Source: Clostridiales bacterium (GTDB taxonomy: Bacteria > Bacillota > Clostridia > Saccharofermentanales > Saccharofermentanaceae). Taken from it: 64,000 nt of DNA. This document shows positions 4,534 through 61,726 of the stretch, one piece after another; within the stretch, counting starts at the first letter, position 1; every line of letters starts with the position of its first letter. The notes beneath the pieces were generated by a model, which searched no databases, was not told the DNA's origin, and saw only the letters and a program-made list of their open reading frames with translations. The stretch covers positions 128,001-192,000 of the forward strand of contig JAFWDK010000019.1 in assembly GCA_017513085.1 (NCBI GenBank), in the 5' to 3' direction. The translations under genes and the position numbers were made by a program.

Positions 4534-4630
4534 CTTATCCCTCCAAATCTGAAATAGAAAACGCTCCATGCTTGCTTATTTTAAGCGGAAAAGCACGAGC
4601 GTTTCCAAAAGAATATTTTACTACAAATAC

Positions 4631-6316
4631 TTATTTCTGGCTATCTCTTTTTCTTATTTCTGCGCGCTTGATCTTTCCGCTAGTGGTCTTCGGCAACTCA
4701 TCGACGTATTCCACGACTCGCGGATACTTATAAGGCGCCGTCGTCTTCTTAACATGGTTCTGAAGCGTCTTGGTCAATTCCTCCGACGGGGAATAACCCT
4801 TAGCCAGCACGATAGTAGCCTTTACGGCAAATCCTCTGACCGGATCCGGAACGCCTGTTACCGCGCACTCCAGTACAGCTGGGTGTTCCATCAAGGCACT
4901 CTCGACCTCAAAAGGTCCGATACGGTAACCGGAAGACTTGATTACGTCATCCACACGACCGACATACCAGAGGAAACCGAGCTCATCGCGGTAAGCGGTA
5001 TCACCTGTATGATACAGTCCGTCATGCCAGGATTTCTCCATCGCTTCCGGGTTCTCCTCGTAGCGCAGAAGCAATCCAACCGGACGCCCACCGTACTCTT
5101 CGCTTGTACGGATGCAGATCTCACCTGTCACACCGGTCGGGCACTCGTTGCCATCCGGATCGACTACTGCAACATGGAAGCCGGGTACCGGGTAACCCAT
5201 GGAACCGGTTCTTGGAAGTACCCACGGGAAATATGTTCCGCAAACAACGGATGTCTCGGACTGGCCGAAACCTTCGTAGATCTTGCAACCGGTATTCTTC
5301 AGCCACTGGTTATATACCTCAGGATTCAACGCCTCACCGGCTGTGCAGCAATGCTTGAGATGTGAAAAGTCATATCCCTCGAAGCTCTCTTTGATCATGA
5401 AACGGTACATCGTCGGCGGTGCGCAGAAAGTCGTGATCTTATAATCGCAGATCTTCTTCAGGATATCCGCACCATTAAACTTATCGAAATCATAGATGAA
5501 CAATGTCGCTTCACCGAACCACTGTCCATAGAACTTACCCCACATGCACTTCATCCAGCCTGTATCGGAGATCGTAAAGTGAAGCTTTCCGTCTTCTACA
5601 CGATGCCAGAATACACCCGTAAACAAATGTCCCAGCGGGAGGGTATGGTCATGGAGAACCATCTTCGGGTATCCCGTCGTTCCGGACGAGAAGCACATCA
5701 GCATCGGGTCAGTTACGATCGTTCCCTCTTCGCCTGTTGGTCTTGTCCACTCGTCACTCTGCTTGGCAACTTCCGCATCAAAATCGATCCAGCCGTCTTT
5801 CTTCTTGCCCCATGTTACGCAACGGATGACCTCATGATCGTACTGATCCTGATCTTCGTCAAAACGCTCTGTGCAATCATCATCGCCCGTGATGACCGCC
5901 ATCTTGATATGTGCGCTGTTGATACGGTAAACATAGTCTTTCGCCATCAACTGGTTGGTCGCCATAACCGTTACGGCACCGATTTTATGGAGAGCCAGTA
6001 CGGAAAACCAGAACTGGTATCCTCTCTTCAAAACCAGAAGAACGCGGTCGCCCTTCTTGATGCCCTGGCTCTTAAAGAAGTTCGCTGTCATGTTGGAGTA
6101 TTTTCTGACGTCTCCAAACGTAAAACGCTTTTCTTCGTTATGCTTGCTGACCCAGAGGATCGCCGGCTTATCCGGTGTTCTCTCTGCAATCACATCCATA
6201 ACATCGTACGCAAAGTTAAATGTTTTCGGATAAGTAACCTTGTAGTTCTTCTGTAAATCGTCCAGTGTAACGAAATCGTCTCTGTTTCGTCCTACAAAAT
6301 CTTCATAAATCGCCAC
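4631..6316 (-). CDS. AMP-forming acyl/acetyl-CoA synthetase
   Basis: FSSGTTGYPK, YEGFGQSET, YHTGD, GRVDDVIKSSGYRIGPFEVES and LPKTTSGKI adenylate-forming motifs. Confidence 0.93.
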   Translation of the reverse strand: MAIYEDFVGRNRDDFVTLDDLQKNYKVTYPKTFNFAYDVMDVIAERTPDKPAILWVSKHNEEKRFTFGDVRKYSNMTANFFKSQGIKKGDRVLLVLKRGYQFWFSVLALHKIGAVTVMATNQLMAKDYVYRINSAHIKMAVITGDDDCTERFDEDQDQYDHEVIRCVTWGKKKDGWIDFDAEVAKQSDEWTRPTGEEGTIVTDPMLMCFSSGTTGYPKMVLHDHTLPLGHLFTGVFWHRVEDGKLHFTISDTGWMKCMWGKFYGQWFGEATLFIYDFDKFNGADILKKICDYKITTFCAPPTMYRFMIKESFEGYDFSHLKHCCTAGEALNPEVYNQWLKNTGCKIYEGFGQSETSVVCGTYFPWVLPRTGSMGYPVPGFHVAVVDPDGNECPTGVTGEICIRTSEEYGGRPVGLLLRYEENPEAMEKSWHDGLYHTGDTAYRDELGFLWYVGRVDDVIKSSGYRIGPFEVESALMEHPAVLECAVTGVPDPVRGFAVKATIVLAKGYSPSEELTKTLQNHVKKTTAPYKYPRVVEYVDELPKTTSGKIKRAEIRKRDSQK

Positions 6317-6319
6317 GGA

Positions 6320-6883
6320 TCAAATATCTCCCTTCATAACTATCGCCAGGAATTTACACGGCTTGTTGTTATTTGCCTTCATGGCATGCGGATAATCGGA
6401 ATTGAAGTAGACGCTGTCGCCTTCGTTCAGTTCATATACGATATCTCCGATATAGAAAGTCATAGAACCTTCGACCACATAGTCGAATTCCTGTCCCTCG
6501 TGGGCGTGCTGGGTCGGCTTTTCAATATCGTTCGGCTCAACGGTAACCAGGAAAGGATCTGCAATTTTCTTTCTGAAAGTAAATGCCAGATGCTTATAGT
6601 TATACGCTGCACGGCGGTCGATCTCGAATCCTTCTCCCTTTCTTACCACGCAGGCAATGGAGAGCTTCGGTGAGTCGCCTACCATGATGTCGACCATATC
6701 GACACCGAGAATCACCGCGACATTATTAAGAAAAGAGACAGAAAAGTCCTTCTTTCCCTGTTCATAAAGAATGTAATCTTCTTCGGATACTTCACATCTT
6801 GCTGCCATGGTGGCCACATCGATCTCTTCGATTTCACGAAGTGCGGCAATTCGCTCGCCGATCTGACGCAATTGATCTGTCAT
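6320..6883 (-). CDS. XRE-family HTH regulator with C-terminal cupin domain
   Basis: IGERIAALRE...YEQG HTH; HAHEGQEFDYVVEG...GDSVYFNSDYPH cupin; start MTDQL at 6883 after AGGAGG. Confidence 0.92.
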   Translation of the reverse strand: MTDQLRQIGERIAALREIEEIDVATMAARCEVSEEDYILYEQGKKDFSVSFLNNVAVILGVDMVDIMVGDSPKLSIACVVRKGEGFEIDRRAAYNYKHLAFTFRKKIADPFLVTVEPNDIEKPTQHAHEGQEFDYVVEGSMTFYIGDIVYELNEGDSVYFNSDYPHAMKANNNKPCKFLAIVMKGDI

Positions 6884-40900: not shown

Positions 40901-41089
40901 CAGCGAGCACGAATGTGTGATCGAAGCCGCCAGATGGTCTGCCGCATGAAGTGTTCGGACCGGATAATTGATAAAAGGTAAAAGCAGCATCACAAGGGTC
41001 AGTGCCACACATCTTGTCGTTCTTGAAAATCTTTTTCCCAAGGTTCTCTCCTCCATACTATTGTATTCTCTCTTCTTCTCTATACTCAT
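37910..41089 (-). CDS. secreted protein: shared N-terminal module, Thr/Pro linker, right-handed beta-helix (pectin-lyase-like) domain
   Basis: Signal peptide ending LHA-AD; TPTPTKK linker; YRECGAKGDGVTDDYDAI beta-helix cap; start at 41089 (ATGA overlap) or 41056. Confidence 0.8.
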   Translation of the reverse strand: MSIEKKREYNSMEERTLGKRFSRTTRCVALTLVMLLLPFINYPVRTLHAADHLAASITHSCSLTSEVDVYYSVKMNTNDSFSNVRLHVEKQVFSGASTSFTWQSFDLTDYMIKDNSYIFCFSGVSAVEMNNLLRATVYADQGSTKCISEVDEFSVKQYLTDLITTHQNGSSDKDKKIRTLCVDLLNYGAAAQTFFGVNTSNLPNAKLTATQKGYASALPSSFSSCNSVRALNGASCTIDFFALGNSYDARVEAYMKFTRTPAANTVVEVTYKSVDGQNRKITIPQSAFRYDSSSKYYVASITGIAPADLKTPLTVVVKSGSGSISGTYTTSVESCMKDLYASASNELKALLRYSLALSNSSKAFFSGSASGSTPTPTKKATDTPTPTKKPTNTPTNKVTVTPVPTAIHTDGYVTYRECGAKGDGVTDDYDAIVATHEYANKNNLRVKADPGATYYIGHMDPKNPNGALIKTDTDWTGATFFIDDKKINWHYEKQKVKQKDDTYIEVDVVVMDDGHCYLFTVEPSKPLEHVYLNPSGGVYLGLDPRLSASTSATAARDFKNKTFSKDTTLLEGEFQETALYYLKTQSVRRWSRNGSAVSSDAIGKEQQEVVIVNKYDSTDAKNHPGKSRIDSMSPFQWDWDKIYIIDKCPIDETLLQITGGKFITNVNIVNTRTYVTRGLNIQRSNVLLKGVEHYLAGEYGQDGQLNEGGKAVYTTPKADPVSGEKKTVIYYPRTGAPYQGFFRLNHCAHVTLQNCVFSNHLRVYNNGDDTNSTAPYDFYAEYCVDLVIDNCHCAPTEDDLTGPADETGIMDKSRWGTTGTNYCKELTVQNHSSISRIDAHQGTYNMTVKDSTIGAWGVAAVGFGELRIDNSFIRSKEYLVKLRNDFGSAWFGDITITNTKWDIGTYYSAVLIYASYDPLYQYMYDTIKEDGMTYYSMLPENINISNLTIDAQKDKDGVFLRDNVPLYSPVMPKRKDANEKYIPIDDKYFNDPSMYKFPLRCTKNFNLSGLTIIKAKTAKYESTGVIAQRPSNDNHSEYYFKKYGLKINYKETPTIVTAD

Positions 41090-44000
41090 CAAGTCACAGG
41101 CCACTCTCCCGGATTCTTTGCCATGATCGCATCGGAATCCGGCGGCGTATTACGGAAGATCAGACTGAAAACTTTCGTCCCGAATTTATTTACAATATCC
41201 GAATACAGTTTTCTGTTCTCTGCAATATAAGTAGATGATTTGGAAAACTCCTCCACCTTCAAGCAGGATTTCACGATACGCCAGCTCAAGAGAGTTCTCT
41301 CGGTCGTGTATTGGTGTCTGGCCGTGTCTTTGGAGACGGCGCTCATCGCAAGTTTTGAAAGCTGCTCGCATCTAGCTATATCCGTATCTGTCATACGGTT
41401 ATGGGCATCCATATACTCTGTTGCGGAAACAGCCTGTTCCACGCCATTGATCACGAGATAGGAAACTCCAAAATCGTTGCAGAACGTCTGCATCGGCTTT
41501 GCGTCATAACCCATTATTTTGTCTCTGAAAAGATACGGATTATACTTACAATTCGGACCGCAACCGTGCCTCTTGGCCTGGTTACACAGAATCTGCATAT
41601 ATTCCTTCATATATGGCGCGCTGGCACCATAGAACTGATTCATAAAGAAATCGATTTCTGCATCAACATCTGCATTCGGATTCTTCAAAAGCACATTACC
41701 AAGATAGTTTCTCAAATCACCGAACTCTGTATTGCAATCACCATGACGGTCATTGCTCTGCAGGTATACACCGGTCACTCCGATGGATTTATAGTAAGCA
41801 ATATCATGCGTCAGTGCATCGAAATTCGGATATGGTGCAATAGTCGAAAACCAGTTGGCATTGTAATCCCAGATCCAGAAATTTGCTCCGCCTTCTCGGC
41901 AAAGTCTTGCCCATTCATTCATGAACGTAACGACTTCTTTGTTCTTCACGCATGAAGTGTCATTACAGCGATGAGCATAACAGCGCGAGATCGGCGCAAA
42001 CTGAACGATGACGTGATCGTCGACCGCTACATCCTTGGGTGGTCTATAATTCCACGTATAGGCCATCAATTCAATATATACGTTCTTGTAGCCCGCTTTT
42101 TTCACAGCCTTGGAAACATAATTGCAAAGTTCCAGGTAATGCGCAGATTCGAACATACCACAAGGGTCACCATTGATATCCGGCACGGTGTGGGCCAGAT
42201 TATAGTTATAACAATCTGAGCACTGGCAATAGACTTCGTTATCATCCTGTCCAAGACAGAGGATCTGCATAGGCGCATTCTTATCATACATAGACCCCTT
42301 TAGGATCTTCATAACATGTTCCAGAATATGTTCTTTCACTTCCGGATTACTGAGACACAATTGTTTATACTGTCGTGTGCCTTTCCACTTACTGAACCAC
42401 TCCGGATGCTGTTTCAGATCCGACTCGTAGAAATACTCATTCAGCAAAGTATGTGCCTGGCCTGGACGAAGTCCTGTCGGATAGTGTGCCGTTTCCGGAT
42501 CATAAAGATACCAGTTCTGACTCCCTGCCTGATTCTGCGTCACAAGATTGGCAAAGAATCCATTCAAACCACCGGATATGGTAAACATACGGTTTTCACC
42601 GGATGCAAATTTACCGAAATATACATCAATATCCGAGAATATGAACGGCCGGTTATAATCAATGCTGATATTTGTTTCATACTTAAAATGTGTCTGATTC
42701 GTGATATATCCGTCCTCAAAAGACAACCAGAAATATCCGCCACATGCTGAGAGAAAAGCTGCAGCACCATCGATCGTACCACGCGCGCCAACTCCGAGAA
42801 TAGAGATACCATTCGTGTACGACTTGATAGAATAAGATCCCTCTGTCTTATAAGCCGCGGTACCATGCGGACGATTGGTTCTTCCGACAGAGATCTCGAA
42901 GCCTTTTGATCCCTGACTTGTTGCATCAGTGATAATGCTCGGAGTATAACCATCTTCTCTCGAAATATAAAGTTGCAGCATGTTAGCCGCATATTTCTCT
43001 TCGTCCGTAGCAGCGGAAGGGATCACGATCACGGCGTTAGGCATATTTTTCGTAAACTTACTGTTCTTATAAGTGGACAGCGATGACACGTTCGTCGGAA
43101 CAGGTGTATTCGTGACCGTAGGCGTAGATGTATTTGTCGGCGTGACTGTCGCTTTCTTGGTAGGAGTCGTTGTATTGACGCTCCCTCCGATTCCGAAATA
43201 CACCTTAGCAGATGACGCATATGCCATGAGATTTGTGATAAAATTCCATGCCTCCTCACTACCACCGGATGTGGCGGAAGCGATCAATTGATGAACATAA
43301 CTCTCTACACTGTACGTGTACTTTCCACTGATCTGTGTACTTCCCCTCTTCACTACAAGGCTCAGTTTCGTATAAAACTCCGGTGCCTTGATCTCAGGGA
43401 TCGATACTTTGTAAAGGCGGGTCGACGTATTGTATGAAAAGTCCGAGAAGTTCTTCTTGATGGTCTTCTTCGTACCTGTTACGGAAGTGTAGCTGACCTC
43501 CAGGTAAGTCGAGCTGTCCGGATTCGATGTAAAACGCAACAAAGCATTCAGGCAAAGGCTCGGCACATTGTCCATCTCAAAATGATCGATCGAACATATA
43601 CTTCCGGAAAACGGCGTATACGCATATACATTCGAAAAAGCAGACGGAAGCTTCGAACCAAGTGCTTTTTGCGCAGAAGTTAGTCCGGCATTGGCTAGAC
43701 TCTGCTCGTTGATATGAAAATACTTCTGCGATGCCGCACCGTAATTCAAAAGATCGACTACAAGTGTACAAAGTGCTCTGTCTTTCGTCGCAGTACTTTG
43801 TGAATACTTTTTCAAAAGCGCTTGGAAATAGGTACGCAGAGACATCTCGTCAGTTTCCGATATCAGCGATACATTCCCGCTTTGCGCATATAACGTCGCA
43901 CGGATAAGATTGGGCATCTCCGTAGAGCGAAGTCCATAGTAACGGAAAACATATTCGCCATTTTCCACTGTATAGTTTTTCAAGTCGATCGTTTCCCATG

Positions 44001-44253
44001 TATAGGAACTGCCTGAGCCGGAAAATTTCTGGCGCTGCAAACGAAGATACATATTCGAATAGGATCCGGAGGAATTGAGCTTCACGTTATATTTCAGCCC
44101 GAGATCTCCGTACAGCTCGACACTATGACTGATCGTAGCATCCAGATGATTATCCGCACGTGCAGAAGGCGTGTACGACGGCGCAATAAGAACCATGTTC
44201 AACATGAGTAGCATCGCTAAAACTGTCAGTAAAGATTTTGTTAGGCGCTGCAT
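41089..44253 (-). CDS. secreted protein: shared N-terminal module, Thr/Pro linker, GH20/GH67-N-like domain, DUF4838-like domain
   Basis: Signal peptide ending ARA-D; VIVIP...EKYAA...RGTIDG; HTLL...HPEWF...QLCLSNPEV...QDDNEVYCQCSDC. Confidence 0.8.
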   Translation of the reverse strand: MQRLTKSLLTVLAMLLMLNMVLIAPSYTPSARADNHLDATISHSVELYGDLGLKYNVKLNSSGSYSNMYLRLQRQKFSGSGSSYTWETIDLKNYTVENGEYVFRYYGLRSTEMPNLIRATLYAQSGNVSLISETDEMSLRTYFQALLKKYSQSTATKDRALCTLVVDLLNYGAASQKYFHINEQSLANAGLTSAQKALGSKLPSAFSNVYAYTPFSGSICSIDHFEMDNVPSLCLNALLRFTSNPDSSTYLEVSYTSVTGTKKTIKKNFSDFSYNTSTRLYKVSIPEIKAPEFYTKLSLVVKRGSTQISGKYTYSVESYVHQLIASATSGGSEEAWNFITNLMAYASSAKVYFGIGGSVNTTTPTKKATVTPTNTSTPTVTNTPVPTNVSSLSTYKNSKFTKNMPNAVIVIPSAATDEEKYAANMLQLYISREDGYTPSIITDATSQGSKGFEISVGRTNRPHGTAAYKTEGSYSIKSYTNGISILGVGARGTIDGAAAFLSACGGYFWLSFEDGYITNQTHFKYETNISIDYNRPFIFSDIDVYFGKFASGENRMFTISGGLNGFFANLVTQNQAGSQNWYLYDPETAHYPTGLRPGQAHTLLNEYFYESDLKQHPEWFSKWKGTRQYKQLCLSNPEVKEHILEHVMKILKGSMYDKNAPMQILCLGQDDNEVYCQCSDCYNYNLAHTVPDINGDPCGMFESAHYLELCNYVSKAVKKAGYKNVYIELMAYTWNYRPPKDVAVDDHVIVQFAPISRCYAHRCNDTSCVKNKEVVTFMNEWARLCREGGANFWIWDYNANWFSTIAPYPNFDALTHDIAYYKSIGVTGVYLQSNDRHGDCNTEFGDLRNYLGNVLLKNPNADVDAEIDFFMNQFYGASAPYMKEYMQILCNQAKRHGCGPNCKYNPYLFRDKIMGYDAKPMQTFCNDFGVSYLVINGVEQAVSATEYMDAHNRMTDTDIARCEQLSKLAMSAVSKDTARHQYTTERTLLSWRIVKSCLKVEEFSKSSTYIAENRKLYSDIVNKFGTKVFSLIFRNTPPDSDAIMAKNPGEWPVT

Positions 44254-46286
44254 CAATTATTACCCTCTTCTTTCGGTTCGATCTCACCACGCTCGATACC
44301 ACATGATTTGCAAAGCTTCTCGAATTCTTCCGAAGAAGCGAAGCCCTTCATGACATTCTCCCTCGTCTCGCCCGCAGCAAGTCTTCCTGCCCAGTACTTA
44401 AGTCCTCCTTCATCTGCTTCTCTATCCATAAAAGTCAGATAGAGTCGCTCGATGAATTCTTTATCAGTGGTCTTAAGATTTACAAACTCATCACCGGTAA
44501 AGAACAGCTTCGCAGCGTCATATCCGGTCTGTTCCAGATTTGTAAGTGCCATCGACCAGTACTTCAATCCATCCTCTTCCGGTTCTCTTCCGAGGCAGCA
44601 TGTGTAAAGGCGTGTCGCAAATTCAATCGCCTTCCTCGAAGCAAATTCCGCTTTATGGTAGATTGCTCCGGAACGCACGCTGTATGTCGCGCAAACATTA
44701 CACCATTCTGTAGATTCGATGAAGTCGTTGACCACGGTTTCGCGTGTCGCATCAGTCTTTAACCGTCCAAGCCAGTAAGACATACCGGCAGCATCCGGAT
44801 CACGGTCATAGAACGTATGGTAAAGCACTGTCAGGAATCGTGTGTCGTCGAGTTTACGGTTCATGAATTCCGGTGCTTCCAACAGGAAGAATCTTGCACA
44901 ATCCGCACCGTTATACTCACCGTTTTCTACCTTCTCGACCCAGAAAGCTTTTCCTTCCGGTTCCGAAGCACGATCCAGAGCGACTACATACAATCTTTCC
45001 ACAAAATCTTCGAATGAAGGTTCATTCGGATCAGGTGTAGGAGTCGGAGTACCTGTAACTCCAGGCTTTGGTGCTTGTGTCGGAGTCTTGGTAGGCGTTC
45101 CGGTCGGAGCAACTGTAGGAGACACAACAGGAGATCCGGTAGGCGCTACAGTCGGAGCACTTGTCGGCGCAGCAGTCGGTTCTGCACCGGACTTGGCGAC
45201 ATAAAGTGTCACGGAAATCGAAGTGTCGGTCAGGAAAAGATGTGTGTTCGCTTTCGGATCCTGGTCCTCAACACAGAAATTCTTCGAAGCATCTTCGCAT
45301 GCTACCCACACGATCTCCACTTTAACTGTTTTAAAGCCACCATCTTTTAGTTCTCTGGTAACCAGACTCTTCGCATCGTGATAATTCATACCATGTACAT
45401 CCGGCATGGCAACGAAAGGCACAGACGGAGTCGGTGTCGGAGCACTCGTCGGCTTCTGAGTAGGCACAGGAGTATTCGTCGGCGTTGGCGTCGATGTCGG
45501 TGTAGGCGTCGGCGTAGTTGTGATCGTCGGGAAAGGCGTCAAAGTCGGCACCTTCGTCGGAGACGGGAACGTAGACGGTCTTGGGGTCACCGGAATATCC
45601 GGACCCTTCGTCGGTGTCGGTTTCTTTGTCACAGTCGGCTTCGGTGTTACGACCGTCGGTTTGGGTGTGACTACCGTCGGCTTCGGCGTAACGGTAACCG
45701 GTACCGGGGTCGTCGCAGACGTCTTAGCAAATGTCTTGGTTATACGAACTGCACCACCGGACAGAGTCGTCAACCGCATACTTTCACCATTCAGCGAAGC
45801 AGTGGTTTTGGAATCGAATTTGTAACCGCTCTTAGGTGTGATGTCGATGGTCACCGTATAGATCGTCGATGCTCTGGCAGTCGTATCTGACGGAGACCAT
45901 GTCACCTTATAGGTCGCACCTGTGGATGCGGAGAAAGATATGCTCTTATCGAGCGCCTGTCCTGTAACGGGAGCGGAAAGATCCTTGATCGTTAAAAAGC
46001 GGATCAGGCCGCAATCGTCACAGATCGGATCCGCCGCGGATGAATACTTGTGAACAAGCACAACGTTACCAGTGTCCGGTGGAAGCATAAACTCACCATC
46101 TCCACTTAAATCCTGCAACTGAACCTGACCATCTCTTAAGTCAGAAATTTGATGCTCCTCTACGATCAGCTCCTGGTCATGAAGAGTAAAAAAAAGCGAT
46201 GTTCCCAAAACAACCAAGACGCTCAGGACCATCGTCAGAAAATAAAAAAACGGTCCACAATCGGAACCGGGTCTGCATTTTTTCAT
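44253..46286 (-). CDS. surface protein with Thr/Pro linkers, PASTA-like domain and C-terminal DUF4214 repeats
   Basis: N-terminal hydrophobic segment; MPDVHGMNYHDAK...QDP PASTA-like; FVERLY..ALDR...G..FW, LYHTFYDRDPD, RLYTCCLGRE, LYLTFMDRE repeats. Confidence 0.82.
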   Translation of the reverse strand: MKKCRPGSDCGPFFYFLTMVLSVLVVLGTSLFFTLHDQELIVEEHQISDLRDGQVQLQDLSGDGEFMLPPDTGNVVLVHKYSSAADPICDDCGLIRFLTIKDLSAPVTGQALDKSISFSASTGATYKVTWSPSDTTARASTIYTVTIDITPKSGYKFDSKTTASLNGESMRLTTLSGGAVRITKTFAKTSATTPVPVTVTPKPTVVTPKPTVVTPKPTVTKKPTPTKGPDIPVTPRPSTFPSPTKVPTLTPFPTITTTPTPTPTSTPTPTNTPVPTQKPTSAPTPTPSVPFVAMPDVHGMNYHDAKSLVTRELKDGGFKTVKVEIVWVACEDASKNFCVEDQDPKANTHLFLTDTSISVTLYVAKSGAEPTAAPTSAPTVAPTGSPVVSPTVAPTGTPTKTPTQAPKPGVTGTPTPTPDPNEPSFEDFVERLYVVALDRASEPEGKAFWVEKVENGEYNGADCARFFLLEAPEFMNRKLDDTRFLTVLYHTFYDRDPDAAGMSYWLGRLKTDATRETVVNDFIESTEWCNVCATYSVRSGAIYHKAEFASRKAIEFATRLYTCCLGREPEEDGLKYWSMALTNLEQTGYDAAKLFFTGDEFVNLKTTDKEFIERLYLTFMDREADEGGLKYWAGRLAAGETRENVMKGFASSEEFEKLCKSCGIERGEIEPKEEGNN
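45050..45720 (-). repeat. coding low-complexity Thr/Pro repeats (e.g. VTPKPTV x3, PTPTPT)
   Basis: Degenerate codon-level repeats within the DUF4214 gene. Confidence 0.7.
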
Positions 46287-46448: not shown

Positions 46449-46901
46449 TTACTCCATGAAACGTTTTTTCTTATCTTTGGATGATTCCGCAGCCAGTTTC
46501 AATCTGGCTTTTGCTCTTCGCATAGCATGACGTGCATAAAGCTTCTGTTCATCGTTGTTGACCGGATCGTGAAGTTTTGCTTCCGCGCGCTCGAGCGCAG
46601 ATTTTGCCCGGTTCTCATCGATCTCCTCCGACCATTCCGCCGCGTTACAGACAATGATGACCGCTTGATGTGCAATCTCGGCAAATCCCTCCGAGACAAC
46701 AAACTTCTTTTGTTCTCCTTTTGTTTCAATACTGGCAATGCCAGGTGTCACAGCGACGACCAAAGGAGAATGTCCGGGCATAACACCCAGCTGTCCATCC
46801 TGCGCTGGAAGAACGATCTTCTCGATACGTCCTTCAAAAAAGATCTCGTACGGTGTCACAACTTCCAGCATTATTGTTTTGGGAGAAACCGAATCTGCCA
46901 T
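46449..46901 (-). CDS. atpC: F1 epsilon subunit
   Basis: LEVVTP, GQLGVMPGHSP, VSEGFAE, C-terminal helical hairpin RAKARL. Confidence 0.96.
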   Translation of the reverse strand: MADSVSPKTIMLEVVTPYEIFFEGRIEKIVLPAQDGQLGVMPGHSPLVVAVTPGIASIETKGEQKKFVVSEGFAEIAHQAVIIVCNAAEWSEEIDENRAKSALERAEAKLHDPVNNDEQKLYARHAMRRAKARLKLAAESSKDKKKRFME

Positions 46902-46907
46902 GTCTGA

Positions 46908-49245
<2,338 letters not shown>

Positions 49246-49251
49246 CTTCCA

Positions 49252-51159
49252 TTACGCCTCGCGCGACTGATACTCCTTATGTTCTGCTACAAACAACGCA
49301 TGGTACTCGGCTTCGATCTCATCGATCTCTTTCTTCGTATCATCATCCAAAACACGTGTATTGATGATCTTCTTCATGATGTCCGGATGCAGCACCGTCA
49401 TTCTCTGCAGGAATTCCTGGACATATTCTTTCGCATCTTCCTTGTCGAGGAAAGTCAGCTTCTCGTTAGTAGCCAGATACAGCATGACCACCTGCTCATC
49501 CATCTGAAGCGGCGAGAACTGCTCCTGCTTTAAGATCTCATTGAGGATCACACCTCGCTTCAACTGCTTCTGGGTATTCGGATCCAGGTCAGAGCCGAAC
49601 TGGGCAAAAGCAGCCATTTCACGAGCCTGTGCCAGGCTGATACGGAGCGGTCCGGCCACTTTCTTCATCGCCTTGGTCTGTGCAGCACCACCTACACGGG
49701 AGACCGAAAGACCGGCATTGATAGCAGGACGCTGTCCCGCGAAGAACAACTCGGATTCCAGATAGATCTGACCGTCTGTGATGGAAATCACATTGGTCGG
49801 AATATAAGCGGAAATATCTCCGCTCAATGTCTCAATGATCGGAAGCGCCGTCATGGAACCACCGCCAAGATCGTCACTGAGCTTGGCTGCACGTTCAAGC
49901 AAACGGGAGTGCAGATAGAATACATCGCCCGGATATGCTTCACGTCCCGGCGGACGACGCAAAAGCAACGAAATGGCACGATATGCCTGCGCATGTTTGG
50001 AAAGATCATCATAGACGATCAGAACATCCGCATGATCCTCATACATAAACTCCTCAGCGATCGCGCAACCGGCGTATGGAGCAATATACTGCAGCGACGC
50101 AGGCTGAGAAGCACTCGAAGCAACGATGACCGTATACTCCAGAGCATTGTGCTGCTCCAGTGCTTTTGCCACGGAAACGATGTTGGCCATCTTCTGTCCG
50201 ATCGCTACATAGATGCAGATCACGTTCTTTCCACGCTGATTGATAATAGTATCCAGCGCAATGGCTGTCTTTCCTGTCTGACGGTCACCGATGATCAACT
50301 CACGCTGACCACGGCCGATCGGCGTCATCGCGTCGATCGCAGTAATACCGGTCTGCAACGGTTCGCAGATCGGAGAACGGGCAACAATGCTAGGAGCCGG
50401 ATACTCGATGGGACGCCGGCTGGTGGAACGGATAATACCCTTTCCATCGATCGGATTACCAAGCGGATCCACGACTCGTCCGAGAAGGCCGCCGCCAACC
50501 GGTACCGAAACCGCACGGCCGGTACGATGGCACAAAACACCTTCCACGACATCCCGGCATTCACCGAGAAGGACTACGCCCACTTTGTCGGATTCAAGAT
50601 TCATGGCAATTCCGTAGGATGTCTCGGAAAACATGATCAACTCGCTGGCTACACAGTTTTCCAGACCACTGACCATTGCCACGCCGTCGCCTACTGAGAG
50701 GACTTTACCCACCTGCTCCACTTCGGACGCTTTGGCAAAGTCCGTAAGAAGCTGCTCACGCTTCTTTTCCTGGGATTCTTCTTCACCTTCCCACAGTTCA
50801 TCGTCCTCAAAAAGCATCGCCGGGCTTTCCGGAAAATCGGCCAAAGCTTCGGCAAGAGAACTATGGATCAGTGCGGCATCGTCTTTCTTATCCGATACCT
50901 CGATATCGGAACCGCGATCCGTCTTTAAGTGCCGGCCAATACGCGATAACTGGCCGGAAACGCTATAATCGTATTTCGTACCTTGGGCAAAGATCACATA
51001 GCCACCGATCAGACTCTTGTCTGTCTCCTGCTCGATCGTATACCCGGAAATATGCAGATACTCGGCGAAGCGGCGCGCAATGAGAGCAACCTTCTCCGGT
51101 GGCATATCTTCGGAAGCCGTTACGATACGGATGACTTCAAAACCACTTCCATTATTCAC
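49252..51159 (-). CDS. atpA: F1 alpha subunit with N-terminally fused delta (AtpH/OSCP) C-terminal domain
   Basis: 635 aa. Residues ~7-78 VTA...[10 protein letters not shown]...[12 protein letters not shown] match the delta CTD. Canonical alpha from about residue 148: [29 protein letters not shown]. Confidence 0.96.
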
Positions 51160-51760
51160 CGGTCTTCACCTCTGTTGACTGAAGCTCTGCATTAACTTTA
51201 TCACGAAGTTCACTTTCCTTCTTCTCATCACCGACTGTGCCCAGCACGTGACCTGCGATGGAAACTGCGAGATCGGCAACTTCGTCTTTCATCTCTTCCA
51301 GCATCGCTTTGCGGGTACGCTTCGCGTCTTCCTCCGCACGGTCGCGGATCTCCTGTGCTTCTTTCTTGGCGGTCTCGATAATGGTCTGAGACTGCTTTTC
51401 CGCCTGGGATCTTGCATCTGCGATGATCTGGATCGCTTCTTCATGAGAAGCGTCTATACGCTTGGAAGCTTCATCAAGCTTTTCACTAGCTTCTTTTTCC
51501 TGTTTCTCTGCATTTTCAACTTGCGCGGCAATACTCTCCTTACGCTTGTTGATGACCTTGATCAAAGGCTTGAAGAGGACCAGTTTCAATATAAAGTACG
51601 CGATCAGGACATTGACGATCGTAACTATTGCGGTGACGGCATAGTGCGCCATCTGATCCGGTGAAAGGATCGAACTTTCCTTCTCACCCTCCGCTACGAC
51701 ATCCAGTGCTACGATCGCAATCTTATTTATGGTTGCAATAGAGAGCAGATTCATTATCAA
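51152..51760 (-). CDS. atpF: Fo subunit b
   Basis: [25 protein letters not shown], long Ala/Glu/Lys coiled coil, VADLAVSIA. Confidence 0.93.
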
Positions 51761-51772
51761 TCACCTCGGGAA

Positions 51773-52039
51773 TCAGAAAGTAAAGATCAGCAACAAGCTG
51801 ACGACCAGTGCATAGATGGCGATGGACTCCATGAATACGATCGAGATAAGAAGCAATGTCTGCAGTTTACTGTACATTTCCGGCTGACGGGATGAGCCTT
51901 CGAGTGCTCTTCCGGCAGCAAGACCGATACCGATACAGGTACCCAGACCGGCAAGACCGATAGCAAGACCTGCGCCGAATCCGGCCAAACCCTTAGGATC
52001 CATAGCAGCAACATCCAGTAAAACACGTGTAAAATTCAT
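51773..52039 (-). CDS. atpE: Fo subunit c
   Basis: Gly-rich helix 1, RQPE loop, ion-binding E in FMESIAIY. Confidence 0.97.
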   Translation of the reverse strand: MNFTRVLLDVAAMDPKGLAGFGAGLAIGLAGLGTCIGIGLAAGRALEGSSRQPEMYSKLQTLLLISIVFMESIAIYALVVSLLLIFTF

Positions 52040-52068
52040 TTTTATATCCTCCTAATATTTCCTTCTCA

Positions 52069-52935
52069 TCAGGCAACATTTGCTTCAGTCTTTGCAGCCT
52101 GTTTTTCTTCTATTTCTTTGCGTTTTTCTTCTTTTCTCTCCGCAACGGCATGTGCGCTCTCTACAACCTCACCGATATACGAAGTTGTAAGGTAGCAGAA
52201 TACGACCGCCTGGAGTATACCATCCATCAGGTCAAACCACAGACTGAACACACCCGGTACGATGAACGGGACGATCAGACTTAAGAATTCCATCAGGATA
52301 AAAGCACCGAATACATTACCGAAAAGACGTAATGACAGTGAGATCGGTTTAACAAAGAAATCGATGATCTTAAACGGAAGCATGAATGGTTTCGGATCGA
52401 CAAAGGAACTGCAGAAACCCTTCAGGCCCACAAAACGGATCGACATAAAGATCACGTAAGCGATGGCAAAAAGCGCGAGCGAAAACGTAAACGCTATATT
52501 TTTAGCCGGTGGTGGGAGTTTAAAGATCGAACAGACATTACACGATATCAGAACTATGCCTATCGTACCGACCATAGGCACCACTTTTTCCGCCTGGCTA
52601 TCGTTAAGGCCATAATCTTTGCAGACGCCGAAAAGAAGACCAATGATCGTTTCCATAACAGACTGCTTAGCATCCGGGAATGTCTTGCGGCTTTTACCAA
52701 GCCACCAGAAAAGAAGGATCCCCAGTCCGACAGCGATCCACATCACAATGATCGCATCCGTGATCGGAAGCTTGTCATCGCCTAACTGCAGATAACCCTT
52801 CCACTGCATGATACCATGCCGGATCTCATCTCCGATGTTTTTTCCACCGGTAAAGACACCGAAAAGGTCTTTCAGCTCATCTATGAAAGCATCCCAGAAT
52901 TCTGTCCACCAAGAGGCGGCAAGTAAGAATCTCAT
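52069..52935 (-). CDS. atpB: Fo subunit a
   Basis: KPISLSLRLFGN with the essential Arg; GILQAVVF. Confidence 0.95.
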   Translation of the reverse strand: MRFLLAASWWTEFWDAFIDELKDLFGVFTGGKNIGDEIRHGIMQWKGYLQLGDDKLPITDAIIVMWIAVGLGILLFWWLGKSRKTFPDAKQSVMETIIGLLFGVCKDYGLNDSQAEKVVPMVGTIGIVLISCNVCSIFKLPPPAKNIAFTFSLALFAIAYVIFMSIRFVGLKGFCSSFVDPKPFMLPFKIIDFFVKPISLSLRLFGNVFGAFILMEFLSLIVPFIVPGVFSLWFDLMDGILQAVVFCYLTTSYIGEVVESAHAVAERKEEKRKEIEEKQAAKTEANVA

Positions 52936-57059: not shown

Positions 57060-58190
57060 TCACACATTTGAAATCACATCCAGAAGCGGCATCAGGATCA
57101 TCTGTGCCAGAAGGATGTGCAGAACGATAAACGGAATGCCCTGAAGGCATCTCGGGATTTTGCTGAACATAAGCCGGCGGTCAAGTACGTGCAGATAAAA
57201 CAGAACGATGGTAAAAGAAAACCAGACTCCGACGACCAGCGCCACCCACCATACAAAAAACGTTGAAACCGCCATTTCGCTACCGGTCGAAAAGCGGCGG
57301 AGGTAGAACACCAGGGGAAGTGCTACTTTCACGATCGTGATCAAGGGCAGGAACGGACTTTCGTCTATCACATCTTCCAGGTTGAACACACGGATCGCCA
57401 GAGTAAACAATGCAAAAGTCAGAAGTGTCGCATAGAGTACGACATGTCCCGGCTGACGAAGGATCTCCGGTGCATAAAGCACATATCCGATACTGATGCC
57501 GCCGCAGATCACATCCGTAACAAGCATGCACAAGATCAGGAGGAAGAATCCCTTTTCTCCTTTAATGGTAGGCGCCTGATATTTCTTGGTTTCATTACGG
57601 TTCCATCCAAGTACCCAGTTCTTCTCTGTTTCGTTTCTTTTCAACACCAGAAGGAACAGAAGACTGACGATCACCAGAAGCGTGGCGCCGGAAGAGTGAC
57701 TCAGGATCTGGACATTATGTGTCTTAAAGATACCAAGTTTAATTCCGAAGAAAGAATCGAATCCCAAAACTTCACGTATCATGGCAATGACCAGGCCATT
57801 GACCAGGTAGAATGCTCCGCCCTGAAGATATCCCGAATCGGTTCCGGACTCGCCTTCCAGAAGAAGATAATAGAAAAGCGGAGCGGAAAGGAACAGGAAT
57901 GTCGATTCCGGCAAAAGGAAAAACGCGGGCATAGGGACCGGAAGTGCGCAGAATTGGGCAAGAAGCGTTGCGATCTCACCGATCACGGCCGCTCCTAAAG
58001 CAAATACACCCCAGCAGATCCGCCGGTTCTTGATAAAGTGTACCGTAGCGATATTGATCAGATAGAAGAGCACGAACTGTACGACCGAGCTGAGGAAGAT
58101 CTTCAGCGAACCGGTCGTGCACAGCATCATCAAGGCAACGGAAACCATGATGTAGAACTGTTTTTTTGTAATGTACGCTACATCCTGCAT
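57060..58190 (-). CDS. divergent fused RnfE-RnfA-like membrane protein
   Basis: About 12 TM helices; MIREVLG...FFG and SSGA match RnfE IRExLG / PGAF; FLPLITI matches RnfA FLPLITTNC; follows the rnfG-like gene; start MQDVAY at 58190. Confidence 0.68.
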   Translation of the reverse strand: MQDVAYITKKQFYIMVSVALMMLCTTGSLKIFLSSVVQFVLFYLINIATVHFIKNRRICWGVFALGAAVIGEIATLLAQFCALPVPMPAFFLLPESTFLFLSAPLFYYLLLEGESGTDSGYLQGGAFYLVNGLVIAMIREVLGFDSFFGIKLGIFKTHNVQILSHSSGATLLVIVSLLFLLVLKRNETEKNWVLGWNRNETKKYQAPTIKGEKGFFLLILCMLVTDVICGGISIGYVLYAPEILRQPGHVVLYATLLTFALFTLAIRVFNLEDVIDESPFLPLITIVKVALPLVFYLRRFSTGSEMAVSTFFVWWVALVVGVWFSFTIVLFYLHVLDRRLMFSKIPRCLQGIPFIVLHILLAQMILMPLLDVISNV

Positions 58191-58191
58191 T

Positions 58192-59427
58192 TCAACCCAC
58201 CCAGTTAAGATACTCACGCATAAATTTATAAGCCACATTGATCGTACTCAGCGTAGCCGAGCACTGGGACTTCATTTCCGGAAGTCCCTGAATATATGTA
58301 CGGATCTCCGAGAGCGGAATGCCATCCACACTCTCCGAGAGGATATTACCGGAATCACCCGTGACCACACCATCTTCACCTCCGACAACACCGATCTGAG
58401 ACGGCGCCGAAGTCGGTGTCGGAGCCGGCGTAGCCGTAGCAGTCAGCGTACCGGGAGCAGTCGGATCGGACGTTGTTTCCGTCTGAGTCGTCGTTTCCAC
58501 CGTCTCGGAAGAATTCTCACCCGAATCTTCCCCATCCGGATTCTCTTTCTGTTTCAGATACATCTCTTTCGTCAACGATGCACGTGAATTATCGATACAG
58601 ATATTGACCAGATTGATAAAATCCGAGATATTCATGGTGACCCCGTCAATGATCTGCGTGGTTCCGTCGGACTTCATCGCCAGTTTCATCGGATCCTGAA
58701 CCAGGATCAACCGGTTCTGTACACGGTAAGCCTGTTCCGCCCAGATCTTGCCGCTGATGTTATACTCGCCATCGATTGAATCCCGGGAACGAAGACGTCC
58801 GTTCTTATTCACCGCGTCCCACTCGACACGGACGATACGACCGCCACGCACCTCGATCTCCACGTGATCCTGATAACCATCCTTGGCCGGTCCTTTTGCC
58901 TCCGCATAATAGACACCATCATGAAGACCCAGCAGCGGATCATACTCCACCTGGTACTGCACATCAGCCACGATCTGCTGATCCACAGTCACCGGAATAC
59001 GCGCGCCGCAAAGCTGACTCTTCAATTCCTCCAGTTCTTCCTCACCCAGAGAGATCGCATCCTCTTCTTCGCTCAGAATACGGAAATCCATCAGGTTTTC
59101 ACCGTTATCACTGATACTGAGCTGGGTATGGATCGAACCCTCAGGAAGCTCCATCGCCACATCCAGAATATAACCGATCAGCTTTCCATCCTGGTCATGC
59201 GCGCTAAACACATAGCGAATATCCTGATAGTTGTCCAGAATATCCGTCTTCAGCGGCCGGTACTCTGTCGCCATCAGCAAAGAACCGAACTCCTCCTGAT
59301 ACTGCTGCTGCTCATTCTTCCTCGAACGGCTCGTCGTCTGGTAATAACACGTAAACAGGAAAGCCAACGACAAGATCACAACGATCAGCGCGCGGATCGT
59401 AAAACCTTTATAAAACGAACGGCTCAT
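58192..59427 (-). CDS. divergent RnfG-like protein with extra FMN-bind-like domain and Thr/Pro linker
   Basis: N-terminal TM; GKLIGYI...SI...ILSEEEDAISLG is RnfG-like; DGVYYAE...VEIEVRGGRIVRVEWD...W.EQ...IDGVT is an FMN_bind-like fold. Confidence 0.72.
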   Translation of the reverse strand: MSRSFYKGFTIRALIVVILSLAFLFTCYYQTTSRSRKNEQQQYQEEFGSLLMATEYRPLKTDILDNYQDIRYVFSAHDQDGKLIGYILDVAMELPEGSIHTQLSISDNGENLMDFRILSEEEDAISLGEEELEELKSQLCGARIPVTVDQQIVADVQYQVEYDPLLGLHDGVYYAEAKGPAKDGYQDHVEIEVRGGRIVRVEWDAVNKNGRLRSRDSIDGEYNISGKIWAEQAYRVQNRLILVQDPMKLAMKSDGTTQIIDGVTMNISDFINLVNICIDNSRASLTKEMYLKQKENPDGEDSGENSSETVETTTQTETTSDPTAPGTLTATATPAPTPTSAPSQIGVVGGEDGVVTGDSGNILSESVDGIPLSEIRTYIQGLPEMKSQCSATLSTINVAYKFMREYLNWVG

Positions 59428-60389
59428 TCTTCCACCTCCCTGTACCAGGAAGATTTTGAAAAAGCTCTTGGCCGGAAATAGTAGTCAAAAACCGGTGTCA
59501 GTGCATTCATCATCAGGACCGGATAGACCATGGCATAAGAAGCATTGCCGAAGCGGTACAAGATCAATGTCAAAAGCCCCGCGCCGCCGCCAAAGAGGCA
59601 CTGCGCTCTCTTATCCATCGGGACCGTCGTACAATCATGAAGGGTGAAAACGCCGACAAACAGGATTCCTCCGCGAATGAACCACAGGAAGAAATCCATA
59701 ACGTTCACGCCGGACCAGTTAAAAGGAATATATCCCAGAAGGATCACCGCAAAATAAGAGAACGGTGCATATACCGAAAAGAGTTTCCGTTCAAAAAGTA
59801 TCAGCGCACCGATCACGATCAGTACCAGCGAAGTCGTACCGACCATGCCGCAGATCCTGCCGGAAATCACATCGAGAGTGCCGACCCCGGATGCGGAAAA
59901 AGCACTGGAAGGAACTGCGTTTCCTGTCAGAAGTGAGCCGATTTTCCAGAAGTTTTCCATCGGCTGTTCCGAGGCCACCATCTGTGTCGGGAACGCGATC
60001 TGAAGAAAAGCTCTCGCCGCCAGCGCCGGATTAAAAATATTTCTTCCTGCACCACCGAATGCCTGCTTGACCAGAAGCGCGCTGAATGCCGCTGCCAGTG
60101 CCACCGCCCAGAACGACGCGGATACCGGAACAAGCATGGCCAGGATCACGCCGCTGACCAAAGAACTATAATCTACATGAAGCGGCAATTCCGGATATAG
60201 TTTTTGCGTGCAGAAAAAATCACAAAGAAAAAACACCGCACATGAAACGGCCACAAGGATCAATACTCGGATCCCGTAATAAAACACAGCTCCGATGAGG
60301 ATCGGCAGCAACGCCAGAAGCACATACATATAGCGCTCGGATGCCGGTTGATTGGCATGAATATGAGGAGCCAGTTGTTTTCTCTTCAT
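59424..60389 (-). CDS. rnfD: RnfD-like membrane subunit (divergent)
   Basis: PHIH, D.SSLVSG.ILA, VKQAFGGAGRNIFNPALAAR, G.VGTTS, VLMMNALTP.FD. Confidence 0.88.
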   Translation of the reverse strand: MKRKQLAPHIHANQPASERYMYVLLALLPILIGAVFYYGIRVLILVAVSCAVFFLCDFFCTQKLYPELPLHVDYSSLVSGVILAMLVPVSASFWAVALAAAFSALLVKQAFGGAGRNIFNPALAARAFLQIAFPTQMVASEQPMENFWKIGSLLTGNAVPSSAFSASGVGTLDVISGRICGMVGTTSLVLIVIGALILFERKLFSVYAPFSYFAVILLGYIPFNWSGVNVMDFFLWFIRGGILFVGVFTLHDCTTVPMDKRAQCLFGGGAGLLTLILYRFGNASYAMVYPVLMMNALTPVFDYYFRPRAFSKSSWYREVEE

Positions 60390-61726
60390 ACGATGCCTCT
60401 CTTTCTCGCCCGATATGCGGCTTTCGCGATATTAGTGGAAAGCTCGATTCCGGACGGGCATACATAGGAGCAGGCCCCACAGGCGATACACTGTTCCACA
60501 GACTCCGAAACAGCCGCCTCTTCCTGACCGACCTCAATCAAGCGGTTGATCAGATACGGAGAAAGTCCGACCGGACATGCACCCACACAAGCTCCGCAAT
60601 GAATACAATTCATGCGCAAAGGTTCAAACTTACGGATAATGGTAATCGCCGTAGTCGTCTTGATGATCGGAACATTCAGGTCCTTAATGGCCACGCCCGT
60701 CATCGCGCCGCCCCAGGCGATCCTCTGCGCAGTATGCGCACCCGGCACGCGTTCAAGAAGTTCCGATACGCTCGTTCCGATCGGAACCAGAACATTATGG
60801 CCCGTGATCGTATCACCGGAGATCGTCACGATACGCGAGATCAACGGCTGGTTCTTCTCGATCATGTCACAAAACGCCTGACATGTCGACGCATTGAAAA
60901 GCACTGCCTTTACTGTCTCTTCCGGATCCTTGCCGATTGGAAGCTCCACACCGTACAAGGCCTTGATTATCAGTTGTTGATATCCCTGCGGATAACGTGA
61001 TTTAAAAAGCCGGACCTCGATCTTCTTATCCAGATATCGATGACTATATTCGGCGACGGCTTTATGTAAAGCATCGATCTCGTCGATCCAGAGATCTTCA
61101 ATACAAAAGATCACCTTTTTCACACGGCAAATACCGCCCAGAGCCATCGCTCCTTGCAGCACGCGGGCCGCATTCACTCGAAGATGGTGAAGATCGCAGG
61201 CAAGGAATGGCTCGCTCTGGGTCGCATTGACCAAGAGCGTGTCCACACCTGCTTTTTCTGCTTTTTTACACTTGTAAAATGTTGAGATACCTTCGCCGCC
61301 CATCCCGCAAATACCGGATGTCCATAAAAGCTTGCTTAATTCCGCAAGAGAAAGAGGATCCACGTTTTTTCTGGGTTGTATCTTCGAAGAAAACCGACGG
61401 CTCAGGTCATTCTTGATCCAGACGGCCTGGCAGCCGGTCCGGTTCGGTAACCGAATCGAATCGATCTTCGTGACCTCTCCTGAAATACTGGCATGGACCG
61501 GAACTCCATTCATATCAGACGGCGCGCCGATCAGATCGCCTATGGCGACAGTATCTCCCACGGAAACCACCGGATCACAGGCAGTTCCTCTATGCTGAAG
61601 CATGGGAAGCACAACTTCCTTTGGTGAACACACTTCAAGAAGGGCTTCGCGCATGATCTTACGTTGCCGAACGAAGTCCAAACCATCGTTAGGGAGGTTT
61701 CCTCTTTTGAAAGTAGCCTTCTTCAT
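60386..61726 (-). CDS. rnfC: RnfC-like subunit (divergent; two [4Fe-4S] motifs kept)
   Basis: PMLQH.G, PVHASISGEV, YPQG, CIHCGACVGACP, CIACGACSYVCPS. Confidence 0.9.
   Translation of the reverse strand: MKKATFKRGNLPNDGLDFVRQRKIMREALLEVCSPKEVVLPMLQHRGTACDPVVSVGDTVAIGDLIGAPSDMNGVPVHASISGEVTKIDSIRLPNRTGCQAVWIKNDLSRRFSSKIQPRKNVDPLSLAELSKLLWTSGICGMGGEGISTFYKCKKAEKAGVDTLLVNATQSEPFLACDLHHLRVNAARVLQGAMALGGICRVKKVIFCIEDLWIDEIDALHKAVAEYSHRYLDKKIEVRLFKSRYPQGYQQLIIKALYGVELPIGKDPEETVKAVLFNASTCQAFCDMIEKNQPLISRIVTISGDTITGHNVLVPIGTSVSELLERVPGAHTAQRIAWGGAMTGVAIKDLNVPIIKTTTAITIIRKFEPLRMNCIHCGACVGACPVGLSPYLINRLIEVGQEEAAVSESVEQCIACGACSYVCPSGIELSTNIAKAAYRARKRGIV

Follow-up and report, generated by a model that had tools for sequence, protein, structure and literature searches.

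The window analysed here is a stretch of 64,000 nucleotides (nt) from a Clostridiales bacterium of the Saccharofermentanaceae (GenBank assembly GCA_017513085.1, contig JAFWDK010000019.1, positions 128,001 to 192,000). On its minus strand (46449-52935) it carries a complete F-type ATP synthase operon, in which the alpha subunit begins with delta's C-terminal domain. The genes are arranged in the order atpB-atpE-atpF-atpA-atpG-atpD-atpC and every product matched its own Pfam family. All coordinates given below for this operon are minus-strand coordinates of the window. The operon starts with atpB (52069..52935; Fo a-subunit, 288 amino acids (aa); PF00119 ATP-synt_A, 119.5 bits), atpE (51773..52039; c-subunit, 88 aa; PF00137) and atpF (51152..51760; 202 aa; PF00430 at residues 45-173, TIGR01144 above its cut-off), the last being the sole b-subunit gene. 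These are followed by atpA (49252..51159; alpha, 635 aa, GTG start), atpG (48310..49245; gamma, 311 aa; PF00231, 266.5 bits), atpD (46908..48296; beta, 462 aa; PF00006 and PF02874), and atpC (46449..46901; epsilon with its C-terminal helical domain, 150 aa; PF02823 and PF00401). The atpF and atpA reading frames overlap by 8 nt (51152-51159), and a Shine-Dalgarno-like GAGGTG, read from the sequence, lies inside the end of atpF (51167..51172), 7 nt upstream of the atpA GTG at 51159. Since the two genes overlap and the GAGGTG lies within atpF, there is no space for an atpH gene between them. An initial annotation of this DNA, made from its letters alone, had given the same gene order, the same overlap and an AtpA of 635 aa, and the coordinates of the open reading frames (ORFs) and the Pfam matches agree with it.

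Four segments were distinguished in AtpA. Residues 8-80 (50920..51138) form the delta (OSCP) C-terminal domain, the domain that docks the b2 dimer, as identified by PF00213, AlphaFold2, and Foldseek. Positions 107-172 of the 172 in the PF00213 profile aligned with AtpA residues 13-78 at 31.2 bits (cut-off 22.3; E = 2.8e-7), and only 7-12 residues precede the domain. Residues 81-120 (50800..50919) are a variable acidic linker with a predicted local distance difference test score (pLDDT) below 55 and a column entropy of 0.95, compared to 0.09-0.23 across the folded domains in 73 sequences of the genus. Residues 121-145 (50725..50799) correspond to the N-terminal helix region of alpha, the part of a canonical alpha that contacts delta; a helix was predicted at 128-144, and the region aligned with the alpha N-terminus of 9jc1_I, a chain of an engineered Bacillus PS3 enzyme considered below. 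Residues 146-635 together with the stop codon (49252..50724) make up a canonical F1 alpha core with beta-barrel, nucleotide-binding, and C-terminal domains (PF02874, PF00006, PF00306). The atpA equivalog TIGR00962 aligned from residue 135 (733.8 bits vs. a cut-off of 484.45), and the best matches of the core among PDB sequences were F1 alpha chains, with E-values down to 2.7e-191. The initial annotation had recognized residues ~7-78 as a delta C-terminal domain, and both the PF00213 match above cut-off and the predicted fold bear this out. It had also described an acidic linker of about 70 aa. The acidic character holds (19 Asp/Glu vs. 6 Lys/Arg in residues 81-135), but the delta domain and the alpha N-terminal helix are separated by fewer residues, ~40-55 aa (from residue 81 to ~120-135). 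Each alpha chain bears a folded delta C-terminal domain, a flexible acidic linker, a normal N-terminal helix, and the alpha core.

An AlphaFold2 model of AtpA residues 1-115 was built from an alignment of 16 natural fused N-termini. In this model residues ~8-80 reached a pLDDT of 94-96 and were arranged as strand-helix-strand-strand-strand-helix; beyond residue 80 confidence was low, here as well as in a full-length model. The delta C-terminal domain has been described as a four-stranded sheet with two helices (PMC12002316). The identity of the AtpA N-terminal domain as delta is supported by the fit of the predicted fold to this description. When the model was compared with the PDB by Foldseek, all 24 matches at E≤1e-3 were delta/OSCP chains. 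The top match was the Bacillus PS3 delta subunit (6n2y_I; E = 2.4e-5, root-mean-square deviation (rmsd) 2.9 Å over 76 columns, 30% identity), and the Chloroflexus delta subunit (9itj_S) matched the model as well, by its C-terminal domain. In the ESM Atlas the best matches of residues 1-150 were OSCP-domain clusters of 115-121 aa, and their scores (0.85-0.88), which are below the reliable level, make them leads only.

The whole genome (36 contigs, 99.38% complete) was searched with the OSCP profile at E≤10 without turning up another atpH or a delta N-terminal domain on its own. The N-terminus of AtpA was the sole OSCP site in the genome; it covered profile positions 97-172, and positions 1-96 were unmatched anywhere. 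The absence of both a delta N-terminal domain and a separate atpH, as claimed in the initial annotation, was thereby upheld. Two known classes were considered and rejected. A mycobacterial-type b-delta fusion disagrees with AtpF, a protein of 202 aa that is matched by PF00430 over residues 45-173, shows no OSCP match, and scores 33 bits with NF009961 (B/delta; cut-off 328). An N-ATPase disagrees with the alpha score (604.5 bits vs. the TIGR03324 cut-off of 750.5) and with the order B-E-F-A-G-D-C, rather than one with beta and epsilon first. The alpha is of the F1 type, scoring above cut-off with TIGR00962 and containing all three alpha domains. Further PF00006 genes in the genome are the operon's own beta, a V/A-type pair on another contig, and one 724-aa frame. 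The delta part comes first and shares one reading frame with alpha, and the genome holds neither a free delta nor a delta N-terminal domain. The locus encodes a naturally occurring delta(deltaN)-alpha fusion F1Fo ATPase, deltaN denoting that delta lacks its N-terminal domain, and this is the only F-type enzyme in the genome. For annotation this calls for caution: such genomes seem to be without atpH while the fused protein is labelled merely 'subunit alpha'.

A lost stop codon or a frameshift introduced by sequencing or assembly could have merged a short atpH with atpA. The source is a metagenome-type assembly of 36 contigs, and oddities confined to one genome do occur, such as the gamma and beta sequences that share a frame at locus L022 of another genome. 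Against such an artefact, 21 of 24 genomes of the window's genus contained an unbroken frame of 635-639 aa at the OSCP match, and the same frame was present in other families of the order. The remaining three genus genomes had a TGA inside the frame (one genome) or shorter frames (219 and 276 aa). A word-based search with AtpA residues 1-140 returned 72 close homologues, which are 617-637 aa long and come from a large number of assemblies; 69 of them have a precomputed PF00213 match, and the 19 loci related to the window by a single protein (72-91% identity) were from close relatives only. Among 8000 scored candidates, 598 longer proteins matched a profile of the fused N-termini at E≤1e-3, with alpha domains in all 120 that were listed; where a name was given, it was nearly always 'F0F1 ATP synthase subunit alpha', and for a few partial entries 'subunit delta, partial' or 'hypothetical protein'. 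Public DNA contigs from two other runs span the region without gaps, those of one run from 50278 to 52100 with 0 differing letters and those of the other from 50284 to 52100 with 12; one of these two runs shares its study with a possible source sample. No indels were listed anywhere in the stretch compared with the contigs of four public runs. That atpF overlaps the atpA start, itself preceded by a good ribosome-binding site, also speaks against an artefact. The initial annotation had itself allowed for a merged atpH and pointed to 50900-51160 as the region to be checked and to related genomes as a second source; contigs from other samples cross that region without gaps, and the fusion recurs across the genus as well as in further families of its order. 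As far as sequence data can decide, the artefact is refuted and essentially excluded.

Contigs from two metatranscriptome libraries lie over the atpF/atpA junction (50991-51364 and 51008-51262) and over the linker (50540-50896), which is compatible with transcription and is not proof of it. All four public runs consist of contigs, from which depth, transcript ends, and expression level are unreadable. At ~49675-50265, in the conserved nucleotide-binding region, there were gaps in the RNA-library cover together with seven 'joints' and contig pile-ups at 90-95% likeness. These pile-ups are probably alpha genes of other organisms and no conclusion was drawn from the region. Conservation was measured as column entropy in the window protein and its 72 close homologues, and was 0.22 for the delta domain, 0.21 for the alpha beta-barrel, and 0.23 for the alpha C-terminal domain. 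With an entropy as low as that of the barrel, the delta domain is kept by selection, and, judged from these alignments, purifying selection on it is as strong as on the alpha barrel.

The distribution of the architecture was surveyed by an OSCP search over 299 scored Clostridia genomes drawn evenly from the class, of which 168 had a match and 30 were re-scored. A deltaN-alpha fusion was called when an open frame of 509-655 aa contained a match starting no earlier than profile position 73 (no earlier than 94 in every genome except one). Fusions of this kind were present in at least 22 of the 299 genomes and in at least 14 families (f1, f2, f3, f6, f7, f10, f14, f19, f32, f39, f60, f66, f68, and f71), and three more f1 genomes probably belong with them. 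In the window's order, as sampled, two families were wholly fused, one was mixed, and one had canonical delta or none. The nearest named relatives were metagenome-assembled genomes (MAGs) from rumen and gut, labelled Clostridiales, Mageeibacillus sp., Ruminococcaceae, and Candidatus Scatonaster (Saccharofermentanaceae). Linker length differed between fusions. At loci L011, L017, and L020-L024 the alpha N-terminal helix is reached ~5-20 residues after the delta domain, and L016, L018, and L019 are intermediate. The ~40-55-residue acidic linker is particular to the window's clade; in fused alphas of other families the segment corresponding to residues 81-120 is absent or ~10 aa long, and most of them are short-linked, similar to the engineered construct considered below.

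Other arrangements of delta were found in the same survey. A full-length delta was fused to alpha in 7 genomes of 5 families, with profile matches starting at positions 10-35 and frames of 668-691 aa; at loci L027, L028, L052, L054, and L064 the fused delta includes its N-terminal domain, and the single axial site cannot hold three such domains. In some genomes a stand-alone delta C-terminal domain of 89-95 aa was located between b and alpha, and forms of 91-92 aa occurred in two further families. One example is L014 (4967-5236, minus strand; genome G027), from the window's order, in which an 89-aa delta C-terminal domain is encoded between atpF and atpA. This mini-delta lies 14 nt upstream of the alpha start and the alpha itself retains an acidic N-terminal extension of ~55 aa, so that the locus resembles either a long-linker fusion that has come apart or a pre-fusion state. 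At L062 (1803-2564, minus strand; genome G083) a 253-aa delta comprises a full OSCP match followed by a second C-terminal domain (profile positions 1-171 and 99-171). Such a duplicated domain would be an alternative route to two b2-docking sites. The L022 locus (4297-6657, plus strand; genome G314), mentioned above, encodes gamma (PF00231, residues 6-296) and beta (from residue 318) in one 786-aa frame. A CGA codon stands where the gamma stop is expected, ahead of a ribosome-binding-site-like AGGAAGG. Since a gamma-beta fusion would tie the rotor to the stator, the shared frame is more likely due to a wrong base or a disrupted gene in this one MAG than to a real fusion.

A quick IQ-TREE phylogeny was calculated from 59 alpha cores and one beta outgroup; the truncated L086 and L089 and the close relatives L031-L049 were omitted. 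The window alpha grouped with long-linker deltaN-fused alphas in a clade of six from families f1, f2, and f3, supported at 100% by the Shimodaira-Hasegawa-like approximate likelihood ratio test. A single clade (98% support) held 29 of the 33 canonical alphas. Outside this main canonical clade the fused alphas formed a grade, interspersed with four canonical alphas, although the root hangs on a very long outgroup branch and is not trustworthy. A single clade for all 18 deltaN-fused alphas was rejected, with a log-likelihood 135.6 lower and p = 1.4e-6 in the approximately unbiased test, on a quick tree that has the model weaknesses of long branches. As the deltaN-fused alphas are not one clade, the fused state arose or was lost repeatedly, or operons recombined. 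Two genomes of the window's family hold both a fused and a canonical operon, and their canonical alphas nest deep in the canonical clade. The fused architecture marks an operon type distinct from the canonical one. The length of the a-subunit was rejected as a further marker of the fused type, as the ranges overlap (225-298 aa in fused operons vs. 222-295 aa in others).

The coupling ion was assessed from the c-subunits. According to a 2026 preprint, Na+ binding follows from E[STQ][STQ]xxY in helix 2 together with E/Q in the middle of helix 1 (10.64898/2026.10.01.756066). AtpE of the window has ESIAIY in helix 2 and no mid-helix E/Q in helix 1, as judged by eye, and so does not conform to this rule. 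Among the operons compared, and with helix 1 again judged by eye, the two Na+ features occurred together in none of the 13 deltaN-fused operons, including the window's, and in both of the two canonical ones; two of the 13 carried the helix-2 motif alone. From these motif counts the fused operons look H+-coupled and the two canonical ones Na+-coupled, and the window enzyme is predicted to be H+-coupled. The c-subunit ORFs of five short-linker fused operons (L011, L020, L021, L022, and L024) were 111-141 aa long with the start codons as predicted. They begin with a hydrophobic, signal-peptide-like segment and an Ala/Glu-rich spacer, followed by a normal hairpin.

What such an alpha subunit could mean for the peripheral stalk is suggested by an engineered enzyme. 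Ueno et al. (2025) described the delta N-terminal domain as occupying the pseudo-threefold axis and thereby limiting F1Fo to one stalk; in the Bacillus PS3 enzyme they deleted this domain and fused delta residues 105-178 to the alpha N-terminus (PMC12229609). The stoichiometries of a and b rose to 2.2 and 1.8 times wild type, and electron cryomicroscopy (cryo-EM) resolved classes with one to three b2 stalks, every stalk having a separate a-subunit at the c10 ring (PMC12229609). The H+/ATP ratio was 5.8 vs. 3.0, the proton-motive force at equilibrium was halved, and the authors concluded that it is the delta N-terminal domain that determines how many stalks form (PMC12229609). In the window enzyme, each of the three delta domains would dock the C-termini of a b2 dimer in the canonical manner, and the complex would most likely assemble with two or three peripheral stalks, every one of them bringing a separate a-subunit to the c-ring. 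The ions passed per turn would then equal the number of c-subunits times the number of a-subunits, raising the H+/ATP ratio two- to three-fold. ATP synthesis would become feasible at low proton-motive force, and when the enzyme runs backwards each ATP would pump more H+, against a gradient that is smaller.

On balance we lean, by a little, towards the natural enzyme being multi-stalk. This reading is based on the engineered PS3 equivalent, which has the same architecture and recruits up to three b2-a modules. The initial annotation had proposed that the tether replaces the delta N-terminal domain and that more than one stalk is possible, a proposal to which the engineered fusion lends support (PMC12229609). 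In the window operon, three identical alpha chains would each carry a conserved delta C-terminal domain, folded according to the model, and the symmetry-breaking N-terminal domain was not found in the genome. Several observations weigh on the other side. In the literature searched we found no structure, stoichiometry, or biochemistry of a natural fused enzyme, and the full-length AlphaFold2 model (mean pLDDT 70.8, from a shallow alignment of 37 rows) was uninformative on where delta docks. The engineered enzyme averaged ~two stalks, shed stalks on preparation, and pumped protons more slowly (PMC12229609), so full stalk occupancy is not guaranteed and a kinetic cost is possible. Docking geometry is less certain in the window lineage because the linker is ~40-55 aa and is short in the engineered construct and most natural fusions. 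The operon has a single atpB and a single atpF, from which a 3:6 stoichiometry would need a difference at the level of expression, and the RNA-library contigs over the operon may stem from contaminating DNA.

The same operon content, one atpB and one atpF as in canonical operons, would suit a single-stalk enzyme, in which the fusion merely replaces the anchoring by the delta N-terminal domain, one delta domain binds b2, two stay idle, and H+/ATP equals c/3. A long flexible linker could leave the spare delta domains undocked, and even in the engineered enzyme three of eight cryo-EM sub-classes were single-stalked and triple-stalk particles were rare (PMC12229609). Ueno et al., however, attributed this to dissociation during preparation, and their biochemistry gave ~two a-subunits and a doubled H+/ATP ratio (PMC12229609). 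Moreover, with three identical alphas and no delta N-terminal domain to break their symmetry, the sequence restricts binding to no single site. We regard a single stalk as possible but doubtful. Post-translational cleavage of the linker, which would release a free mini-delta and a normal alpha as in relatives with a stand-alone delta C-terminal domain of 89-95 aa, appears improbable. The linker is predicted to be disordered, and the L014 operon, from the same order, encodes just such a set: b, the 89-aa mini-delta, and an alpha whose ~55-aa acidic extension resembles the linker, with the stand-alone forms of 91-92 aa in two further families pointing the same way. Yet there was no evidence for a processing site and a single frame is kept in 21 of the 24 genus genomes. 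Cleavage would also leave the main consequence unaltered, since a delta devoid of its N-domain could still sit on every alpha. A more far-reaching reading joins the preferred multi-stalk enzyme with the phylogeny: an H+-coupled F-ATPase with two to three b2-a modules, whose long, flexible and acidic order-specific tether varies the number of engaged modules and thereby the H+/ATP 'gear', and which represents a fused or short-delta state older in Clostridia than the canonical single-stalk operons with full-length delta that spread later and that bear the Na+ motif in both of the examples examined. The position of the fused alphas as a grade outside the canonical clade, and the genomes that hold both operon types, fit an older fused or short-delta state, but taken as a whole we consider this reading unlikely.

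The energetic setting of the host was examined by searches of the genome (99.4% complete). The ion-motive systems found were RnfD-family matches and a V/A-type ATPase; no cytochrome bd, Nuo/Mrp-type antiporter subunit, or H+-pyrophosphatase was found. The host is probably a fermenter living on small ion gradients, and a multi-stalk enzyme would suit it, as Rnf and the V/A-type ATPase are the only ion-motive systems found in this fermentative gut anaerobe. The V/A-type ATPase that is present alongside the fused F-type enzyme is encoded at ~152600-159300 of contig C24, by genes for an I subunit, an A subunit (634-aa frame), and a B subunit (458-aa frame). Part of the Rnf complement lies in the window itself. 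An RnfC-like gene (60386-61726, minus strand; Complex1_51K, RnfC_N, and 4Fe-4S domains) is located ~4 kb upstream of the atp operon. It is followed, within the region 57060-61726 on the same strand, by an RnfD/NqrB-family gene (59424-60389; 224 bits) and then by two ORFs that lack a Pfam match, 411 and 392 aa long, the latter encoding a hydrophobic product that, read from its translation, looks like a multi-pass membrane protein. A stronger RnfD match (387 bits) is on another contig, and the Rnf genes of the window may for this reason be a second, atypical Rnf-like module. Directly downstream of the atp operon (41089-46286, minus strand) there are two large ORFs (1055 and 677 aa) whose extended Pro/Thr-rich linkers are a usual trait of proteins that are secreted or sit on the cell surface.

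The H+/ATP ratio is a basic bioenergetic constant and was long held to depend on c-ring size alone. The 2025 work showed that the number of a-subunits can multiply it too and that the delta N-terminal domain holds that number at one (PMC12229609). Natural delta(deltaN)-alpha fusions are candidates for this principle in nature and offer concrete natural targets in the search for multi-stalk F-ATPases. The fused design is the sole F-type enzyme in an abundant group of rumen and gut fermenters and is common across Clostridia, and it might explain how strictly fermentative bacteria make use of very small ion gradients.

The architecture has been published before and the idea put forward in the initial annotation is not new: it was engineered in 2025, with natural cases noted, and treated in a phylogenomic preprint in 2026. 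Natural delta-alpha fusions without the delta N-terminal domain are reported from the Acidaminococcus fermentans operon, with UniProt G4Q3K6 and A0A1I2C5T3 also cited (PMC12229609), and Mulkidjanian et al. describe fusions in which the alpha N-terminus carries delta's C-terminal part alone, and argue that short-delta enzymes may be multi-stalk (10.64898/2026.10.01.756066). As far as these descriptions go, the window enzyme is like the published natural fusions in carrying the delta C-terminal part on the alpha N-terminus and having no separate delta gene. It differs from them, compared by description only, in its host, an uncultured Clostridia gut or rumen bacterium whose nearest named relatives are Saccharofermentanaceae-like MAGs. 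Our additions are the breadth of the architecture in Clostridia, its separate operon type, the evidence against a single clade, and the long-linker subgroup, although published supplementary listings may already cover this lineage or these families.

Among solved structures, the engineered PS3 fusion is the closest to the window enzyme. Its chain 9jc1_I was the best match of the profile of natural fused N-termini (E = 4.7e-19), in an alignment that extends from the delta domain across the linker into the alpha N-terminus, and Foldseek superposed 9jc1 with the AtpA N-terminal model over 68 columns (34% identity, rmsd 2.1 Å). Both have the delta C-terminal domain at the alpha N-terminus, no delta N-terminal domain, and no free delta. 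The engineered enzyme is man-made, with a short linker and a truncated epsilon, whereas the window enzyme has the ~40-55-aa acidic linker and a full-length epsilon (PF00401). The F1Fo of Chloroflexus aurantiacus has two peripheral stalks (alpha3beta3 gamma epsilon delta2 a2 b4 c10; PDB 9itj; PMC12002316), as the initial annotation had stated. In this natural F-type enzyme a modified delta N-terminal domain allows the b2 stalks and the a-subunits to exceed one each; its delta is, however, a separate protein without alpha fusion, and dimerizes through a short four-helix N-terminal domain to give two sites, not three (PMC12002316). The mycobacterial b-delta fusion, correctly cited in the same annotation, is represented by 7jg5_d, which also matched the profile of natural fused N-termini (E = 7.7e-12). 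Here too another stator subunit carries the delta C-terminal domain by covalent linkage, but the partner is b, the delta N-terminal domain is retained, and there is a single stalk, while the b-subunit of the window is devoid of a delta domain. Finally, the N-ATPase shares with the window enzyme the lack of a separate delta gene; it may be multi-stalk as well, and its delta remnant sits on b (10.64898/2026.10.01.756066).

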